Assembly: GCA_963827655.1 (NCBI GenBank)
Contig: CAWHCF010000020.1
Coordinates: 256,001-320,000, forward strand
Direction of reading: 5' to 3'
Length of the DNA stretch: 64,000 nucleotides
Source: an uncultured Acidobacteriota bacterium
Lineage (GTDB): Bacteria > Acidobacteriota > UBA6911
The notes below the pieces were generated by a model, which did not search any database, was not told the origin of the DNA, and worked only from the letters and a program-made list of their open reading frames with translations. Of this stretch, positions 1,285-48,079 are shown in pieces; within the stretch, counting starts at the first letter, position 1; each line of letters opens with the position of its first letter. Both the position numbers and the translations under genes were made by a program.

Positions 1285-4008
1285 CGGTCAAAAACGAATG
1301 CGCGGCTGTTCAGCAGAGCCCAGACCAGATCTTCTACCACGGCGTCGGACTCGCTCGATTGACGAATCCGCGCGAGCCAGAAGTCTCTCTCCTGCCCGGA
1401 AGGCGGGCGGCTCAAAGCCGCGAGGTAAAACTCCTCGACTATGGCCTCAGCTGGGGCCTTCTTCTCCCGCAGTGAATGCAGGCGTCCTCCCGGCGCGCCG
1501 ATCTTCGCATTCAAGGCCGGGCCATTGATCAAATGCAAAGCTTCCCGAACCCCGCCGGCAGCCGGGTTCGGGCCGTCGCAGCTGCCGTCGCGCTGGCATC
1601 GGCCGCAAACATCAAGCAGGTACGACTCGACACCGGGATCGGCGACCTGGCTCGCGCGCGTTCCGGGCGGCAGATTTCCGAAGGTTTCCGGGATGCCGGT
1701 TACATGCGCAATTGCGTCCGCGTAACCATAGGGATCAAGCGGGCGCGCCAGCGCGCGCGAATAGAAGCGGTCGTCCAGGCGATTGATCCCGTTGGGCTCG
1801 GCGCTCCGCTGGTAAGCCTGTGAGGTAACGATGACCTTGATGAGCGCCTTGATGGAATAGGGGCGGGAAGGATTCCCTGCCAATCTCCCTTTGAAGAATT
1901 CGGCCAGCGCGTCGAGAAGCTCGGGGTTCGACGGGGCATTGCTTACCGTAAGGTTATCGACCGGCTCGATAATACCGCGCCCCATGAGGCGGGCCCACAC
2001 CCGGTTGGCGGTCGAGCGCGCGAAATACTGGTTGTCAGGTGAAATCAGCCAATCGGCGAGGGCGATGCGGCGGTCAGGTTCGGTTTGCGGGGCCGCCGTG
2101 TTGTCGGGAAACCCGGGCGCCACGGGTTTGCCCGTCTTGGGATGTTCGATCTCGCCGTGGTCGGCGAGGTGGGTTCCCTTCTCGGTCCGGTCAACCCGGA
2201 CGAAGAATGAAACCATCTGGTGGTATTGAGTCTGGGTCCAGCTGTCGAACGGATGGTTGTGGCACTGAGCGCAGCGCGAGCTGCTTCCCATCAGGGCTTC
2301 GGTGGTCAATTCCGAGAGCAGCTTCGGGTCGTTCGTCTGCCGCAGATAATTTACCGGCGCATCCTGGGTGCCGTCGCCGACGGCGGTTAGAATCTGCTGC
2401 GCCGTTTCGCCAAAAGAAGCATCGGCGCGCAGCCGTTCCTTCAGCCAGGCGGCGAAAACCTGCAAGTTCGGTTCGCCGACGTTTCTTGACTTCACTCGCA
2501 TCAGATCGAGAAGCCACAGGCTCCAGTAGTCTCCGAACTCCGGCCGGTCGAGCAGGGCATCGACCAGACGCGCGCGCTTGTCGGGCGCGCTGTCCCCGAG
2601 AAAGGCGCGGGTTTCTTCGACCTTCGGCAGGGTTCCCAGGATGTCGAGATACGCCCGGCGAATGAATTCCGAATCAGTGCAGCGGGCGGAGGGAAGAATG
2701 CGCAAGCGGAGCAGGTTGTCATTGATCGGTTTGTCGATAAACGACGAAGAGGCTGGAAGGGCGCGGGCAATTTCAGCCGCGTCGCCCGCGAACGGCATCC
2801 CGACGCGCGCCGTGCGAAAGATTCCCATGTAGCGCGCGGCAATGCCGGTCTCTCCTGCGGAATGAATTGTGAACTCGCCGCTAGCCGGTAACGGTTGCGA
2901 TGGCATCGTCGTTGGAGCTGTAGAGCGCGTAGGCGGTGACATCGTCCTTGGAACCGTCGGAAAACGATGCCACCACCTTCAGCTGCCGCTTGCTCCCGGG
3001 AGATTCCGCAAGGGCGACGGCTGGAGTAACGGTCAGCCCGGTGATCCGGCGCGGCTTGGTTGATTCGTAAGGCGCGCCGCCGCGGATCCAGGCGAGGACC
3101 GTGCGGTAGGTCTCGGAGTCTTTGGTGAAGCGTTCCCCCCCGAGGTGGACCTGCTGCATGGTCGGCTTCTTTAACAACAGGCTTTCTTCAGGACGAACGA
3201 AATTGACGCGCCGGCCGCGCAGCTGGTAGATCATCGCTTCGTAGTCCAGCTCGGGATCGTAGCCCAGGAGCGATAGCTTGAATCCGTTCTTTCCTGCTCC
3301 GGCCCCATGGCACGCGCCCGAGAAGCATCCGGCCTTGACCAGCATCGGCTGAACCCGCGTGACGAAGTCGGGCGGAAGAGCGGCGCCCTGGTCCGGGGTC
3401 GAGGAGGGCGCCATGCGCGAGCCCGGTCCACGGTTCAACTCCTCCGCGGTCGGGACGTGTCCGCCCACCAGCTTGGCCACTTCGGCGATAATCCTGGGAG
3501 AATCGGTCAGCCCGGGCTGGACCAGGGTCACGTTGGCCACAACTTTTCGATCTTTGGCCACGATGACAGTCACCGCGGCCTGCTTGTTCAAAGCGTATGC
3601 GCCGGGACCTTCCTCGCCATCGAGCGAAACCGCAGCAGGCACCTCCAGGCTGAGGGATTTGACCACCTGCGCCATGCGCCGTTCGCCGGCGACTTTCTCC
3701 GGCGCCAGATAAACGTAAAGCGTCTTGAGGCCTGCCGACGCGCGCTCGGCTGCGTACCGGTCGCAAGGCCAGAGGATCCGGTAGACGTTCCGGTCGATGT
3801 AGTGCGCAAAGACCAGAAGAAGAGGCGAATCGCCGTAGCGGGAGATGTAATCGACTTCTCGCCCGGAGTCGGGGCCGTTCACGGCCAGGACTTTAAACGG
3901 AAGGAGAGGCTCGCCCGGTTGCGGTCCCGAGAAGAGTGTGTCCTGGGAATACACATGTAGATTCGGGAGAAAGAGCAGCAGGAAGACTGCGGCTGATGCG
4001 CGTTTCAT
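1281..4008 (-). CDS. Redoxin-like + Ig-like (BIG_2-type) + DUF1549/DUF1553 protein (frameshift near 2886)
   Basis: ATG at 4008 overlaps the WD40 stop (ATGA). Motifs AGCFSGACHG, FIRRAYLDILGTLP, RCAQCHNHPFD, ANRVWARLMGRGIIEPVD, EDLVWALLNS. ORFs 2881..4287 and 1281..2942 join at ATVT/ASGEF. Confidence 0.85.
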
Positions 4009-41156: not shown

Positions 41157-44100
41157 TCAGCGTCTTTGCGCTCTTGGCGGGCTGGGGTTGCTCGGACGCG
41201 CGTAGTTGGCCGCCCGGCCCGGGTCGCCGCGATACTGATGCGAGACTGCGGCATTGGGACCGGTGCGCTCTCCGCCGACCACGTAAAGATAGCCGTCGCG
41301 CGAGCCGAAGATCACGTCGGCGTATCCGTCGCCTTGCAGATCGGCGATGGCCGGCGAGCCGCTCAATTCATCGTCGGTTTGAAACTTCCAGAGCAGTTTT
41401 CCCGCGCTGCTGATTGCGCACAGGTAAGTAGCCCGCGTACCGGCGATCAGATCGGGTCGTCCGTCGCCGTCGAGATCGGCGCTGACCGGCGCCTGGGTGA
41501 AGAAGTCGCGCGAGTTCTCGAGCGAGAACTTCCACTGGTCGCTCCCCCGGCCGTCAACCACATGGATGGTCGCGGCATCGGAAACGACGATCTGCCGTGT
41601 GCGATCTCCCGAGAGCTGCGAGATTTGAGGCATACCGCGCACATCCTTCCGCTCCCAGACAAGATGACCGTCGAGATCCAGGGCCTTCAGGTGTCCCGCG
41701 CCCACCACGATGCGCACCGGACCTCCCTCTTCGAGGGGGCCCGCCGCGGGCGTCATGGTGTTGGGAACCAGCCCGGGCGTGCTTGAGCCAAGCCGGTGAT
41801 CGTGTTTCCAGCGCAGCTTGCCCTGTGAGTCGAGGAGATAGGTGCAGCCGTCATCGGCGCTGAAGACGACCGCGGTTGCCTGCCCTTCGGCGCGGATCAG
41901 CACCGGAGTCGTCAGACTCAGACCTCGAGTGCGCGGGCCTGCAGTCGAAAAGCGCCAGCGCAGCCGGCCCGTATGCTCGAGAGCGAAGACCTCGCCTGTG
42001 TCGGACGCGGCCACGATCTCCAGATTGCCGTCACCGTCGAGATCGCCCAGAGCGGGTGATTTCGCGCTGCGGTCGAACTGGCGGATTCCGTCGCGCTTCC
42101 AGCGCAGCCGGCCGTCGGCCGACAGCACATAAAGGATGCCATCGGAATTGAAGACGATGGACGGTTTTTCACCCGGCACCAGGGGCGCGACCGCGGGTGA
42201 AGAGATTACCGTTCCTCCGGAATCGAAACGCCAGAGCTCCTTCCCCTCTCGGCTGATGGCGTAAAGCGAGCCGTTGTAAGACCCGACCACGATCTCAAGC
42301 TGCCGGTCGCCGTCCAGGTCAACCACTGCGGGTGACGACAAGAGCCAGCCCGAGTTTGCGAAGCGCCACTCGGTCGCTCCGGCCGCCCAGCCTACCGACG
42401 AAGAGGGAGGGCCGCTCTTTTCGCCGCTGAGGGCGACGACCTTGTAATAAAACCCATAGCGAGGCGGTTTCGTGTGGTAAGGAGGGGCCGGCACGGTCCC
42501 GAGCAGGTTCTCCTTCGAGACGATGAAATCCGGGCTGGTGCTGCCGTGAATATTGTAGCGATCAACACCCTTCACCGATTCCCACTCCAGTTTCAAATCG
42601 CCGGTGTCAGGTCTGGGGACGAGCCGCGTTTCGAGCTGAGGAGGAGCTTGACGGATCTGGAGTTCGGCGGTGTCTTGAACTTTTGTCCCTTTTCTTTCTC
42701 CGGCTGCTTTCAGGGAGTTCAACCCTTCCCGGAACTGCACCTCCCAGCTGAAACGCTCTCCCTTGCGACGGGATCCCAGTGACCTGCCATTATGAAAAAG
42801 CTCCACAACGTCGCAGTTGCTGAACACTTCAATCGATTCAGGCTGGCCGGGAGGCCACGAATCGCGAGGCGTCCACGACTTCTCGCTGATATGAACCATC
42901 GGTTCGGTGGTCCAGATGCTCTGGTAATAGTAGTAGGCGTCCTTCTTCATCTCCTTCATGTCGATGACGCCTTTCCAGGTATGGCGCGGGATCGGCTGTC
43001 CCGATTTTGAATCTCGAAAGGCGAAGATCAATCCGCCGGCGACCCAGGGTCGGCGGGCGATTTCCTGTTCGAAGCGGCGGTGGAACGCCGTGTGATACTC
43101 GTGTGAGAAGTCGTTGCGGCGGGGATTTCCGGCATGAACGTCGGAATCGGAGGCCGCCCCATAATTCGAAACGATGATGGGCATGTCGCGTCCATAGCGC
43201 TCACGCAGGAGGGCGCGATAGGAATCCATGTAGGGTCCGATGTGTTCGAGTGTGCCTTCGTACCACCCGGTGTAGTTTCCCTGCCCGGCTATGTCGGCGT
43301 CGATCAATCCGACCGTCCCCGGCGACCGCCATCCAAGCTCCACGCAGAAGACCGGGCGGGTCGTGTCCAGGGCTCGAAGAGCCTTGGCCGCTTCGGAGTA
43401 GACTTCTCCAGCCGCCGCGTCCTTGCCTTCGCCGTTGAAGTGCCACGAAATCAGCGACGGATGATTGTATCGCCCCTGAACGTCCCGGCGCATGTTCTCC
43501 CGGACGCGCGCGCGGTCCGCGTCAGCATGTACATCGACCGTGGCCAGGATGCCCGCCCTGTCGAACTCCTCGAGGATGGTCTCGTCGATTCCACCGGCCG
43601 TGCGCACGAAGTTGATTCCCATCCCTTTGATGAGTCCCAGCTCGTACTTCCATAGACTGCCTCGGTCGGCAAACTTGCCAGGCCCGATTTTGTAGTAGAC
43701 CGTACCCTTCAGCTTGAGATGATTTCCGTTGAAAAAGAAACCCTTGTCCGCGTCAAAATGAAATCTGCGGAAGCCAAAGTTCGACTCTAGCTTGCGAACC
43801 GTGGTCCCCTGTACGCGCAGCTCGGCGACCACCCTGCAGAGCTGGGGCTTCTCGAGCGACCAGACTGGAGGTTGGGCGATGGTCTCGGTCATGAGCTCCA
43901 GACCGCCCTTAGCTCCTGCAGCTACGCTTCGAGTGCCCGTTTCAGCTTTCGCGAGGAGCTTTCCTTGCGGGTCGAGGACCGAAGCCGTGACCGCGTAGGA
44001 CTGGTCTTGCGTCGACACGTTTTCGACGGTCGTGCGGATGCGCACTCGCGCCGCCCCACCCTCCCATCCGGGCGTGTCGATCATGAGAGAGTCTGGCTCC

Positions 44101-44582
44101 AGATCCAGGGGCGCCTGTACGAACAGCCGGACGCGACCCTGAATGCCAGGAACCTGGCAGCGCAAAACCAGTAGATTCTCGCCCCTGCGGACCAGCCGCG
44201 TGACATCCAAATGCAGCCAGGGCTGCCCGGCCGGGCTCTTGCTCGCGAAGGCCCCGTTGAGCCAGGCCTCGAGTCCGGGCGAGTCGCTGACATCGAGCAA
44301 AACGCGATGTCCGGACGGAATCTCCGGAAGGTCAAAGCGATGGCGAAACCAGACTCTCCGGGTAGATCGGGGCAGCTCGTCTGATATTTCCTGCGCATTA
44401 TGAGGGACATGAGCAGTTTGCCACTTTGAGTCATCGAACTCGGGCCGCTCCGCCCCGCTGGCGGGTTCGAGACTGAACCGCCAGCCTTCGGCGATGGTAA
44501 TGCTAGCCTGCGTGTCTGCCAGAACGCTCTGACACCACGCAAGAAAAGCAAGGTAAATGCAAAGCCGACTGATGCGCCCCAT
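41157..44582 (-). CDS. GH2-like glycoside hydrolase with C-terminal FG-GAP/PQQ-type propeller
   Basis: FDDSKW, FGFRRFHFDADKGFFFNG, NHPSLISW, KKDAYYYYQS.W, VFSNCDVVELFHNG; repeats SSPAVVDLDGD. Confidence 0.85.
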   Translation of the reverse strand: MGRISRLCIYLAFLAWCQSVLADTQASITIAEGWRFSLEPASGAERPEFDDSKWQTAHVPHNAQEISDELPRSTRRVWFRHRFDLPEIPSGHRVLLDVSDSPGLEAWLNGAFASKSPAGQPWLHLDVTRLVRRGENLLVLRCQVPGIQGRVRLFVQAPLDLEPDSLMIDTPGWEGGAARVRIRTTVENVSTQDQSYAVTASVLDPQGKLLAKAETGTRSVAAGAKGGLELMTETIAQPPVWSLEKPQLCRVVAELRVQGTTVRKLESNFGFRRFHFDADKGFFFNGNHLKLKGTVYYKIGPGKFADRGSLWKYELGLIKGMGINFVRTAGGIDETILEEFDRAGILATVDVHADADRARVRENMRRDVQGRYNHPSLISWHFNGEGKDAAAGEVYSEAAKALRALDTTRPVFCVELGWRSPGTVGLIDADIAGQGNYTGWYEGTLEHIGPYMDSYRALLRERYGRDMPIIVSNYGAASDSDVHAGNPRRNDFSHEYHTAFHRRFEQEIARRPWVAGGLIFAFRDSKSGQPIPRHTWKGVIDMKEMKKDAYYYYQSIWTTEPMVHISEKSWTPRDSWPPGQPESIEVFSNCDVVELFHNGRSLGSRRKGERFSWEVQFREGLNSLKAAGERKGTKVQDTAELQIRQAPPQLETRLVPRPDTGDLKLEWESVKGVDRYNIHGSTSPDFIVSKENLLGTVPAPPYHTKPPRYGFYYKVVALSGEKSGPPSSSVGWAAGATEWRFANSGWLLSSPAVVDLDGDRQLEIVVGSYNGSLYAISREGKELWRFDSGGTVISSPAVAPLVPGEKPSIVFNSDGILYVLSADGRLRWKRDGIRQFDRSAKSPALGDLDGDGNLEIVAASDTGEVFALEHTGRLRWRFSTAGPRTRGLSLTTPVLIRAEGQATAVVFSADDGCTYLLDSQGKLRWKHDHRLGSSTPGLVPNTMTPAAGPLEEGGPVRIVVGAGHLKALDLDGHLVWERKDVRGMPQISQLSGDRTRQIVVSDAATIHVVDGRGSDQWKFSLENSRDFFTQAPVSADLDGDGRPDLIAGTRATYLCAISSAGKLLWKFQTDDELSGSPAIADLQGDGYADVIFGSRDGYLYVVGGERTGPNAAVSHQYRGDPGRAANYARPSNPSPPRAQRR

Positions 44583-44719
44583 GTGTAGCCCTTCCGTCAC
44601 TGTATTAGGATTCTTGGTGTTTCTTCGTGTCTTTGAGCCTTGGTGGTATTGGTTAGACAGCTCTAACCACGAAGGTCACAAGACACGAAGAAACTCGATT
44701 CGTCCCGGGGCGTCAATGC

Positions 44720-45730
44720 TCAACTTTCAAAAAAGGCCCCGTTACGTTCCTGGCCGAGCGCGGCAAATAAGACATTTTGCGGACCGTCGTCAGATTCGAA
44801 CATGGCCCCTCTGCGAACGGCCCGCCATTTGATGCTCGCGCTGGTTTTTTTGTTAAGGTAAACGAATCGGTTCGCGAAGTTGCGGGCTTGCTCCTGGGCC
44901 CCACCGCCGAACCACCGCACTTCCATGGACACCGTGGACGGAAACACCGGCCTCAAGGGCATGCCCGCACCATCAAGAGCTGCCTCCGTCCCACAGCGCG
45001 GTGAGAACGTTACCAAAGTCCGGCATCTGGGCATCACTCAGACAGAAGATAGCCTCTCCACTGGCGAAGTCCATCGCCACACTCGCCGGCGGGATAGGCA
45101 TGGTCCAGAAGAGCCCGGTTTCGGACGTTCCTGGGTTGTGATCATGGAGCTGAAAATCAAATTCGCCGAGGTGACCCACCTCGAAAACGTCCATTCAATA
45201 GAGTGCGAAGTTCCGTGGTGTTCGGATCCGTCGGTGCCGATGTAAAAACCGTTCATGAAACGGGCGTCAACGCCAAAGGGAAGACCGGTAGTTGTCCTTA
45301 TGACCGCGCCGGTAAAGGGATCCAGCTCGGTCCGCGTACCCGTTCCCTGGATGTCGAGGACGGCAACGTCTCCTCTGAAATTAAAGATCAGTGATGGCTC
45401 CGCCTGCGGTCCCCCGAAAGTAAAGTGGAAGAGTCTATCAGGAAACCGAGGACCTAGCGCGGCACGAGCATTGAAGCCTCCCGGAATCGGTACCGGGGCG
45501 GGGCTGCCAAGTGGATTCACGACAGAGATCGAGGGATTCTCCATCGCCTCGGTCTTATTCCGCAATCCAGCACCGGCGACCAGACTCATACCTGCGGCCG
45601 CCTGAATGAAATGCCTCCGCGAGACAGCCGGCCCAGGAGAGCCGGATTGGACGGTGTGACTTGGTCTTCCGCCGGAAGGCGTCGAACCGCGTTTGGACAA
45701 GTCGTCCCACAAATGGCGTTGACAGAACAT
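44720..45730 (-). CDS. Tat-signal hypothetical protein, candidate selenoprotein (UGA 45197-45195; two compensating frameshifts near 45209 and 44980)
   Basis: AAAGGAG RBS, SRRHFIQAAAG; the three ORF pieces join into about 336 aa; SECIS-like hairpin 45183-45167. Confidence 0.65.
45167..45197 (-). promoter_or_regulatory. Candidate bacterial SECIS element
   Basis: UGA-AUGGACGUUUU-CGAGGUG-GGU-CACCUCG: perfect 7-bp stem starting 11 nt after the UGA, with loop G/U at +20/+21. Confidence 0.6.
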
Positions 45731-45911
45731 CGCAAGATCTCCTTTCTCGCTGAATCGGTGATCAGTTTACCCAGAACCGGAATCGGTCAGTGAAGGTCCG
45801 GGTTCACACGGCGTTCCTTGTCGCTAACTGCTTGCAGCGTAAGGAAAACTCAAGTCCATGTCAAGCGTTTGCCAATCCGTTGCGGGTCTTCGTGGTTGTC
45901 CTCGAATCGCC

Positions 45912-46000: not shown

Positions 46001-48075
46001 TTGAGCGATACCAGCTTGCGAGCATCGATCGTCGTCGTCATTCTTGCGATTCTGATGAAACCCTCGGTTCACGCGGCCGATGGCGAGGGACGGGTGACGA
46101 TCTCGCCTGATTTCTCTGTCGCTGGAATGGCGGGTACCTGGACCGTCACCTTCACGGCCGGCCCGGGCGGACTTGCAACCGGAGGGAGCATCCGGATCGA
46201 GCTGCCAACCGGGTGGTCCGACGCGCGCTTCTCGGAGCCCCAGTTTACCAAGCCTGCGGCTGCGCACTACACCACGATCCGGACCTCCTCGAAAACGGCA
46301 AAACTCTACCGGCATCTTGAGAACTATCTGCCGCTGGAAGAAAAGCGTCACTGGTTCCGCAGAGTCATCTACGTAGGAGTTCAAGAAGGTGAGATCGCGC
46401 CCGGAGAGACGATCACGGTGGTCTACGGCGACACCGCCGGCGGCAAGAACCCCGGATCCGTAGGACCAAGGTTCGTCAACGATGGCATAGTAGTGGTCGT
46501 TTCGGACCAGGATGGCGACGGCCGGGGCAAGAGGGTCGCTGAAGCCCCGCACCTGGTAACGCGCGCTGCCGATCCGGTCGAGATGCAGTTGATTGCGCCC
46601 AGTCAGGCGGTCGTGGGCCGGCCGGTGGAAGTTCAGATCAATATCACCGACCGATTCGGTAACCTGGTGACCGATTACGCAGGGGAAGTCCGGCTGTCCG
46701 CTGCGCAGGGCCAGGTTCGACCCGACCGCGCGCGTTTCGCCAAGGGCTCGCTTCGGGTCGAAGTTATTCCGGAGAGGACCGGGTTTCTCCGGATTGAAGC
46801 GCGCGGAGAGGAGAAATTCGGAACGCCGCTCAGCAATCCTATTAATGTCGGGACCAGCCAGGAGAAAACCAGCCTCTATTGGGGAGACATACATTCGCAC
46901 AGCGGCATCAGCGAGGACGGCAGCGGCGGAGACCCGTTTCCATACGCGCGCGATGTGTCGCGCCTCGACTTCTACAGCTTGACCGATCACCTGAACGTGC
47001 GCGGCGAGGCCCTCAACAATATGGGCAAGGTCGGCAATGACTATGGCGAGGGAGTGCTGCCCAACGAATGGAAGTGGACGCGCGAGCAGGTCGATCGCTA
47101 CTATAGGCCCGGCCGTTTCGTTACACTTCTCGCCTTCGAGTACACGTTGATCTGGCCCTGGGGGCACCACAATGTGTATTATCGCGATAACAAGCAGGAT
47201 TACTTCATCGGAGACAAGGTGCCCACGACCGAAGCGCTCTGGGCGGCGCTGGACGAGAAGGGGGCGTTCACGATTCCGCATCACACCGGGATCGACTGGA
47301 ATGATGGCGGGGTCACGAGCGCAGCCGTGGAATGGCGCACACGCAACGATCGGATGCGCCCGTCGATCGAAGTCTATTCCGTTCACGGCCAGAGCGAAAT
47401 GTACGACTCCACCAGCAAGATTTCTTATGAGATTTCAGGCAGGATTCCGATTGATGGTCCTCACTACGCGCGCGACGGATGGCTCCGAGGTCACCGGATG
47501 GGGGTGATTGCTTCGAGCGACAACCATACGTCGCAGCCCGGGCAGAGGCAATACGGTCTCGCGGCAGTGCGGGCGCCTGGGCTGACGCGGGAGGCGATTT
47601 TCGACGCCCTGCGTAGCCGGCGAAGCTATGGCACCACGGGCGAACGTATCTGGATGGAGTTCAAGGTGGAAGACCATGACATGGGAGAAGAATTCCAGAG
47701 CCGCGCTTCACAGCCCAAGATAACGTTTCGAGTGGCGGGCACCGACACGGTTGATTTTGTCGAGGTGGTCAAGTTGGATCTGGTGGAAAAGAAGTACGAG
47801 CGGTTGGGCGTCCTGAATCCCGGCAGCCAGGATTGTGACGGCACGTTCTGGGATAAGAGCTTCAAGAACGACAGCATGTATTACCTCCGGCTGCGCCAGC
47901 AGAAGCCGGTGCGCGACCGCGAGGTATGGGCCTGGTCGAGTCCGGTTTGGGTCAGGAAAGCCGATCGGCAAGTGGCAGATGGCTGGAATCCAACAGGATG
48001 GTTTGCGTTCCTCGCGTCTTGTCTCGCCGCGCTCACTGCGAAGACACTGCGACGCGAAGGGAAGAGGAGGGTGTC

Positions 48076-48079
<4 letters not shown>
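46001..48079 (+). CDS. DUF3604-like PHP-fold metallohydrolase, secreted
   Basis: LYWGDIHSHS, LDFYSLTDH, GHHNVYY, IPHH, IEVYSVHG, ASSDNH, AWSSPVWV. Confidence 0.82.

Follow-up and report, generated by a model that had tools for sequence, protein, structure and literature searches.

A candidate selenoprotein family with a twin-arginine signal and a predicted beta-barrel fold, found in databases mostly as split hypothetical proteins

Introduction

Does a UGA codon near the middle of a small gene from an uncultured Acidobacteriota bacterium end translation, or is it read as selenocysteine (Sec)? The gene occupies positions 45730-44720 on the minus strand of a 64,000-nucleotide stretch of DNA, here called the window (GenBank assembly GCA_963827655.1, contig CAWHCF010000020.1, positions 256,001 to 320,000 of the forward strand; GTDB lineage Bacteria; Acidobacteriota; UBA6911). 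A first-pass annotation, drawn up by a model from the letters and a list of open reading frames (ORFs), had proposed that the gene encodes a novel selenoprotein exported by the twin-arginine translocation (Tat) pathway. The analysis described here indicates that the locus very likely encodes one polypeptide of about 336 amino acids, a member of a selenoprotein family that is apparently undescribed.

Selenoproteins are few, and most of them are thiol-type redox enzymes of anaerobes; newly recognised families tend to reveal new chemistry. The family described here appears to carry a Tat signal and is without the usual CxxU or UxxC motif; cysteine counterparts are all but absent.

A single gene split over three frame pieces

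Direct reading of the sequence shows a single gene whose coding parts fall into three frame pieces. A ribosome-binding site (AAGGAG, 45739..45744, minus strand) stands 8 nucleotides upstream of the ATG at 45730. The first coding piece, in frame 1 (45210..45730, minus strand, delimited by ORF calls and homologue alignment), runs from Met1 to Thr174 and comprises the signal peptide and the N-terminal half of the protein; the third base of its last codon, Thr174, is absent in this assembly. The uncorrected frame-1 ORF spans 45730-45038 (minus strand), starts with MFCQRHLW... and includes AVSRRHFIQAAAGMSLVAGAGL, with the paired arginines at codons 38-39. It is meaningful as far as ..GSEHHGT, at about 45210, after which the homologue-like sequence moves to frame 0.

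The second coding piece (frame 0; 44982..45209, minus strand), defined by alignment with the related loci L001-L003, reads F-A-L-Y-U-MDVFEVGH...HDHNPG...GLFWT...TALWDGG, or, with the codon in question left untranslated, ..NFALY-TGA-MDVFEVGHLGEFDFQLHDHNPG..GLFWT..TALWDGG. That in-frame TGA, the proposed selenocysteine codon 179, lies at 45195..45197 (minus strand). The third piece (44720..44980, minus strand) picks up frame 1 again with ..LDGAGMPLRPVF... and ..ALDGAGMPLRPVF.., and ends ..GQERNGAFFES at a TGA stop (44722-44720), the C-terminus of the family being ..ERNGVFFS.

The pieces are separated by two one-base breaks. At the first (45209..45210, minus strand) one base is absent between 45210 and 45209 in comparison with every close relative represented in metagenome contigs; at the second (44978..44981, minus strand) one base is in surplus, the base omitted by close relatives being that at 44981 (contig X2) or 44978 (contig X4). 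Correction of the second break gives a length equal to that of L001 in the alignment (LWGGGAVDGQGMPL versus LWDGG-ALDGAGMPL), and with both corrections the product is 336 amino acids long with U at codon 179. The first-pass annotation had described three ORF fragments behind a good ribosome-binding site and a Tat motif, and had estimated about 336 residues with the UGA near codon 179 after two corrections; the description was borne out and both figures were exact on re-reading. The other TGA to which it drew attention, at 45040 (45040-45038), is confined to the uncorrected frame.

A TGA codon conserved across five phyla

A protein search with the first ORF returned 33 relatives, all 129-179 amino acids in length, and all of the 29 that were aligned have the same C-terminus, ..H-x-G-T-F-[AG]-[FL]-[FYV]. 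Genome contigs supplied 56 loci, from Acidobacteriota, Chloroflexota, Actinomycetota (including three cultured Kribbella), Planctomycetota (Gemmataceae) and Armatimonadota; the family is also present in soil and rhizosphere metagenomes. (Two unpublished genomes, G034, which carries L034, and G096, were counted only as single members.) A TGA occupies the homologous codon in all 56 genome loci, and a single TGA stands at that site in 80 of 80 loci on metagenome contigs from the Joint Genome Institute (JGI), giving 136 out of 136. One of the two search patterns used in the JGI scan spelled Cys at the site and so would have favoured cysteine forms; no TGY codon was found there in any of the 136 loci.

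In 55 of the 56 genome loci the same frame continues past the TGA for 141-157 conserved codons (up to 275), with the conserved blocks [LIMV]-D-[VL]-[FY], Q-I-H-D-F-N-P-G, G-L-F-W-T and E-R-N-G-V-F-F. The remaining locus, L056, keeps the TGA but is frameshifted and truncated. The homologue comparison suggested at the outset thus found an in-frame TGA at exactly this codon and a second half in the same frame across five phyla.

If the UGA were a genuine stop, the locus would instead hold two adjacent genes, possibly translationally coupled, for an exported protein of 178 amino acids and a partner of about 150. Gene callers annotate nearly all members in this way, and in the window, as in L001-L003 and L013, an ATG directly follows the TGA. 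Against this, the internal TGA is invariant, whereas the terminal stops of the 55 genes are mixed (TAG 26, TGA 21, TAA 5, with three genes running off the contig), and the second half always continues directly, with the frame unchanged. In these 55 loci the internal TGA is followed by CTN in 35, ATC or ATT in 10, GTC in 4, ATG in 4, GTG in 1 and CCC in 1, so that 50 of them offer a poor or impossible start. The fixed TGA, the mixed terminal stops and the make-up of the next codon together rule out an ordinary stop with restart, as well as a genome-wide reassignment of TGA. The two-gene reading is also opposed by a predicted barrel that needs strands of both halves and by the occurrence of the gene beside selA, selB, selC and selD (both described below), and we give it next to no credence.

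A profile search of 1.84 billion cluster representatives returned 2197 matches at E <=0.001 (clusters at 50% identity), which makes this a large family. Among the best 150 of the 2197 representatives, most are N-terminal halves ending at profile position 126 or C-terminal halves beginning at position 128 or later, and every source-given name among the cluster entries is 'hypothetical protein'; annotators do divide the gene in two, as the first-pass annotation had expected. Thousands of such split entries could be corrected. Sixteen representatives are full-length, and in their Sec column W occurs 8 times, S 3 times and C once (P0036), with L, F, G and K found once each. A further entry with W at the site, P0194, is 99% identical (307/311) to the product of the L020 gene, in which the codon is TGA, indicating that its W results from a gene caller reading TGA as Trp. 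Among the W-containing full-length database proteins, P0194 is the only one that was matched to DNA. Genuine cysteine forms are very rare in the family.

Two loci depart from the usual arrangement. L056 (~1216-1700) combines a frameshift in its N-terminal half with a retained TGA and loses the C-terminal half after ..HDFNPGITASGL, where an ORF resembling a Ser/Thr kinase follows. L041, from a Candidatus Acidoferrum metagenome-assembled genome (MAG), holds two paralogues about 2.6 kb apart (1-790 and 2905-3816), both with the TGA; the upstream paralogue has a divergent motif, ..GTMTEI-U-LDSTSPSG..RDHSWDGG.

A SECIS-like hairpin follows the TGA

In bacteria such as E. coli, Sec insertion is directed by an element of the mRNA, the selenocysteine insertion sequence (SECIS); that of fdhF begins 11 nucleotides after the UGA, with GGUC at +19..+22 and thus G and U at +20 and +21. 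In the window the TGA is followed by AUGGACGUUUU (11 nucleotides), CGAGGUG, GGU and CACCUCG, which form a hairpin (U-CGAGGUG / GGU / CACCUCG-G; 45166..45184, minus strand) with a perfect 7-bp stem, or 8 bp with the basal U-G pair. GGUC falls at +19..+22, with G20 and U21 in the loop. The first-pass annotation had read off the same stem, spacing and GGUC position.

We then asked how often such an element occurs elsewhere, requiring an uninterrupted helix of at least 6 bp, a loop starting at +20..+24 from the U of the UGA, and GU within the loop. Hairpins of this kind follow the TGA in 31 of 55 loci, compared with 272 of 14233 (1.9%) other codon positions in the same genes. The stems differ widely in sequence (GAGGUG, AGGGUCC, CGGGGGC, CCGUGUC, GAGCCC, UGAUCCCG, CGGUCCC and CUGACUC), and the loops are GGU, GUU, AGUU, GGUC or AGGUC. 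A covariance model built from 11 loci, picked for their common register, detected the site in the majority of 57 sources, made up of the window and the 56 loci, with few weak matches elsewhere in 387 kb; its match in the window (model R1) extends from 45199 to 45157 and scores 15.3 bits. In the model-fitted alignment, which leans towards structure because it is fitted to the model, compensatory (double-sided) changes occur in 7 of 7 pairs, 91.6% of cells are paired versus 24-46% with slid partners, and the covariation score is 0.454 versus at most 0.113. The position of the hairpin is therefore conserved and covariation is present in that alignment, in answer to the question of conservation that the first-pass annotation had posed.

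Selenocysteine genes accompany the family

The window's own genome contains selB (380 bits), selD (384), tRNA-Sec (74) and selA (398), the last of these frame-broken in the assembly; the machinery that the first-pass annotation had suggested looking for beyond the window is all present. The same genome encodes the formate dehydrogenase alpha subunit FdhA (G000:C26:166295-169291; 1381 bits with TIGR01553), whose gene contains one in-frame TGA and is free of frame breaks, indicating that the organism has at least one other selenoprotein gene. A selB match above the cut-off was found in 42 of 50 carrier genomes.

More direct evidence comes from gene order. In three Kribbella genomes selB, selA and tRNA-Sec lie on one strand, and selD followed by the target gene on the other, the target gene starting 22 nucleotides after selD. 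In L011 the order is target, selA, selB, and in L013 selD lies about 700 nucleotides upstream of the target gene. In G033, a complete Kribbella genome, TIGR01553 matches nothing at E <=1e-30, and no Sec-bearing molybdoenzyme was found in Kribbella, where 17 of 17 molybdopterin-domain matches in the three genomes are stop-free (other selenoproteins were not searched exhaustively). Given its adjacency to the Sec cluster, and with no Sec-containing molybdoenzyme found there, the target gene is the obvious client of that cluster in Kribbella. The same combination, in cultured and non-pathogenic strains, of a gene inside the Sec cluster and no Sec formate dehydrogenase found makes the proposal directly testable in the laboratory and offers a reason why aerobes of this kind retain the costly Sec system.

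Kribbella thus provides a compact Sec island, which in the complete genome occupies L033 1-3816 and is also seen in L017 and L040.

These data also bear on whether the UGA might be read through without Sec machinery, by near-cognate insertion of Trp or Cys or under a changed genetic code. Such a reading would account for the W or G found at the site in some database entries. The W of P0194, though, is the gene-caller artefact described above, and 21 of 52 terminal stops in these genes are TGA, indicating that TGA still terminates in these genomes. Neither a hairpin with SelB-type spacing and a GU loop nor the position of the gene next to sel genes would be expected from it, and we regard it as very unlikely.

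Export signal, predicted structure and proposed mechanism

The window protein carries the twin-arginine motif S-R-R-H-F-I-Q at codons 37-43 (45602..45622, minus strand), followed by the hydrophobic stretch AAAGMSLVAGAGL. Its N-terminus, VSRRHFIQAAAGMSLVAGAGL, can be compared with the pattern of [ST]-R-R-x-F-L, a hydrophobic core and an A-x-A cleavage site. The Tat-signal model TIGR01409 scores it at 15.7 bits, just under the cut-off of 16.7, and matches 18 of 53 members at E <=0.1; the arginine pair itself is found at 45 of 55 loci, and at 29 of the 55 the twin-arginine motif has an H-x-H-F/L-x-x-R motif immediately before it.

This upstream element, seen for example as G-H-x-H-F-[WA]-x-R in L008, L024, L026 and L044, falls in the expected n-region of the signal peptide and may be where a dedicated chaperone for export docks. 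In the window's clade QRHLWDD stands in its place, far upstream.

Apart from Tat-signal models and four single-member matches (E 0.016-0.1), 53 full-length members, with Sec read as Cys, have no Pfam-A or NCBIfam match at E <=0.1. The three window fragments likewise matched nothing in Pfam or NCBIfam but the sub-threshold Tat signal, and a profile search of PDB sequences gave 0 matches at E <=1. The family's product is roughly 320 amino acids long. An AlphaFold2 model, computed from a 53-row alignment, has a mean predicted local distance difference test (pLDDT) value of 79, rising above 90 over most of residues 100-320, and is all-beta with eight long strands. The predicted barrel takes strands from both sides of the Sec codon, and its structural matches span residues 104-321. 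A Foldseek comparison with the PDB gave no convincing match, and a wider structure search gave generic barrels only; the closest candidates for comparison are small eight-stranded beta-barrels such as NspA, OmpW, PagL, nitrobindin, YceI, hemophilin, the TbpB barrels and acetoacetate-decarboxylase-like enzymes.

In the model, Sec is positioned near the end of the third long strand (158-171; U167 in L001 numbering), with the invariant D169 two residues on. The Q-I-H-D-F-N-P-G turn comes after a variable linker of about 7-17 residues past Sec. Other invariant residues (L001 numbering) are H90, E99, P100, R145, Q183, D186, W198, T199, W262 and E317. The family alignment contains no CxxU or UxxC motif, in agreement with what had been remarked of the window's Sec context, and no second conserved Cys, which makes a thiol-selenol couple of the CxxU type unlikely.

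A lead to a named family came from the Cys homologue P0036, whose nearest clusters by protein-language-model features belong to the domain of unknown function DUF1838 (PF08894; score 0.94, 26/30 matches). We rejected it, as none of the 53 members matches PF08894 and hhalign gave a probability of 0.06% (against one DUF1838 sequence). DUF1838 is itself without known function.

The conserved TGA, the continuity of frame, the covarying hairpin and the sel genes, all of them features of sequence, support the original proposal that the UGA would be read as Sec. In the mechanism that we envisage, the short hairpin beginning 11 nucleotides downstream of the UGA at codon 179 would present G and U in its apical loop and, by analogy with fdhF, would recruit SelB with GTP and Sec-tRNA(Sec), so that the ribosome would insert selenocysteine rather than stop. 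The precursor bears a twin-arginine signal, and the folded protein is for that reason probably exported by Tat. Its mature part is predicted to be a single eight-stranded beta-barrel with strands from both sides of the Sec codon; a barrel built in this way from both halves implies that only the read-through product can fold. Sec may form the centre, catalytic or cofactor-binding, of a redox enzyme outside the cytoplasm, in which it would form a redox, cofactor or metal site with the neighbouring Asp and the His/Asp turn.

Evidence against a selenoprotein

Several observations weigh against this explanation. Where the hairpin is concerned, 24 of 55 loci lack a helix of the strict kind, and one acidobacterial clade (L004, L014 and relatives) has another, weaker geometry, with the loop AAGUCCC at +17 and 5-7 bp. 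The covariation count rests on an alignment seeded with 11 sequences that had been chosen for showing the hairpin, and RNAalifold predicted no pairs on a plain MAFFT alignment, a null result that we attribute to the differing loop lengths. The fold energy of the 42 nucleotides after the TGA is unremarkable (at the median locus, 37% of the windows from that gene fold more stably), and no Rfam family matched the hairpin, with only spurious matches to mir-35 and SNORD35 at E <=10.

The distribution of the family raises further points. The classical Sec/Cys pair is nearly missing, with Cys in 1 of 16 full-length representatives, and in 8 of the 50 carrier genomes no selB match exceeds the cut-off. 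Nor is there one in G060 (86% complete), the second genome with the target gene among 61 relatives of the window's own. Since selB occurs in 58 of those 61 and the target gene in only 2 (G000, the window's own genome, and G060), the joint presence of the two tells little within the window's class. We rejected it as evidence within Acidobacteriota on the basis of this 58/61 background. A last point concerns the integrity of the window's own copy.

Frame breaks in the window's copy

Four metagenome runs, from soil, rhizosphere and sediment, supplied contigs that were aligned to the stretch at >=85% likeness. All contigs covering 45209 carry one extra base (T in X2 and X3, C in X4), and those covering 44978-44981 (X2 and X4) carry one base fewer; the two corrections made in the first-pass annotation, a base added near 45209 and a base removed near 44980, are both as found in these contigs. 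The covering contigs are 90-95% identical relatives and do not come from the source sample (the best run shares 0.27 of the stretch's words). They therefore show the intact form of the gene and cannot settle whether the indels in the window are errors.

In the window's own assembly (G000; 8.18 Mb in 53 contigs), the genes rpoB and rpoC (C8:77700-86155) and dnaE (C29:159420-162483) contain one frame change each. Essential genes of this kind cannot be pseudogenes, indicating that the assembly contains one-base indel errors, and because they are broken as well we read both breaks in the window's copy as one-base assembly errors, which we consider the probable explanation.

The density of the breaks speaks for another reading, in which the family consists of selenoproteins but the window's copy is a true pseudogene, its indels being real and having displaced the Sec codon, the hairpin and the HD(x)NPG motif from the reading frame. 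There are two indels in the 1 kb of this gene and three in 1.4 kb of selA (C23:243631-244996), versus three in the roughly 10 kb of rpoB, rpoC and dnaE (about one per 3-4 kb), and real decay of both the window's copy and selA is possible. In addition, the adjoining ORFs of 1147 and 692 amino acids are unbroken, the missing base at 45209/45210 lies outside any homopolymer run, and a degraded family copy exists elsewhere (L056). Decay is opposed by the three essential genes, whose frame breaks show that indel errors occur in this assembly, and by the two indels being mutually compensating, with no further stop accumulated. FdhA with its in-frame TGA, selB and selD are moreover unbroken in the same genome, and every covering contig from the 90-95% identical relatives is without both indels. 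On balance we think it rather unlikely that the copy is a pseudogene. It cannot be called intact from this assembly, and, given the split essential genes and selA, a gene of this genome should be called a pseudogene only with support from reads.

Relation to known selenoproteins

The closest parallels to the system proposed here are fdhF and FdnG of E. coli. They have in common with it the in-frame UGA, a hairpin that begins after 11 nucleotides and whose apical loop holds G and U at +20 and +21, and the presence of selA, selB, selC and selD in the genome; the putative twin-arginine signal resembles the periplasmic formate dehydrogenase. Unlike them, members of this family lack a molybdopterin domain, an Fe-S domain and the U-H-x-P motif, and are predicted to form a 30-kDa beta-barrel. 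The catalytic subunit of E. coli formate dehydrogenase-N (FdnG) is a Tat-exported selenoprotein, so that the description of the gene as a novel Tat-exported selenoprotein holds for the novelty of the family and not for a Tat-exported selenoprotein as such. The protein family and its chemistry are apparently new, and the recoding mechanism is apparently of a known kind.

Table 1 of a 2026 review lists 119 prokaryotic selenoprotein families or subfamilies, nearly all with a Pfam, NCBIfam, PTHR or cd identifier (PMC13188914). As far as the accessible part of that review shows, its families share with ours a single Sec, a bacterial-type SECIS within the coding sequence and entries that databases cut short at the UGA, and differ from it in that Cys homologues are nearly absent here (PMC13188914). 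None of the 119 entries, as given in that part, fits the present family by Pfam-A and NCBIfam models (PTHR and cd identifiers were not searched), and the local motif F-x-F-x-U-[LIMV]-D is absent from the table (PMC13188914). A full-text literature search found no description of the family; Haft and Tolstoy 2025, the groundwater MAG study of Deng et al. and the supplementary tables of deep-Sep and BSepDB, which were beyond reach, could list it.

The near absence of Cys forms may explain why the family was missed by methods that rely on Cys/Sec pairs. According to the accessible portion of the deep-Sep paper, both its filter and an older SECIS-independent method demand Cys-containing homologues (PMC12013277), and BSepDB, by the corresponding portion of its own description, was built from previously reported families (PMC13326102). 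To that extent the case exposes a blind spot of prediction pipelines that require Cys homologues (PMC12013277).

A broader interpretation, which we put forward tentatively and hold to be possible rather than probable, is that these proteins are nearly Sec-obligate, Tat-exported beta-barrel selenoenzymes of aerobic soil bacteria. Sec, the Asp two residues on and the His/Asp of HDFNPG would bind a cofactor or metal that is loaded before export, or would perform chemistry beyond the reach of cysteine; the Sec cluster of Kribbella would be kept for this protein, and the family would have escaped every Cys/Sec-pair screen. If so, the gene would be a second 'anchor' of the Sec trait, beside formate dehydrogenase.

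Neighbouring genes and an intergenic palindrome

No neighbouring gene is shared by the family: clustering of 2498 flank ORFs from the 136 loci recovered only the two halves of the gene and shadow ORFs, the next cluster being a kinase found at 11 loci. The ORFs downstream of the Kribbella genes matched no Pfam or NCBIfam family. In the window, the gene is flanked on one side by an ORF of 1147 amino acids (41157-44600, minus strand) that Pfam identifies as a glycosidase resembling glycoside hydrolase family 2 (GH2), fused to a beta-propeller of the pyrroloquinoline quinone (PQQ)/FG-GAP type, and on the other by a DUF3604 protein of 692 amino acids (46001-48079, plus strand; Pfam). Neither the GH2/beta-propeller nor the DUF3604 neighbour is kept beside family members elsewhere.

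Directly past the stop codon, and outside the protein, lies a near-perfect palindromic intergenic repeat of about 90 nucleotides (44605-44700, also delimited as 44609..44694; no strand assigned). It has a fold energy of -42.9 kcal/mol and 304 BLAST matches in the window's own genome, and the depth of soil metagenome contigs is very high at 44600-44680, within this region. The palindrome looks like an intergenic repeat of the repetitive extragenic palindromic (REP) or miniature inverted-repeat transposable element (MITE) type, and may act as a terminator.

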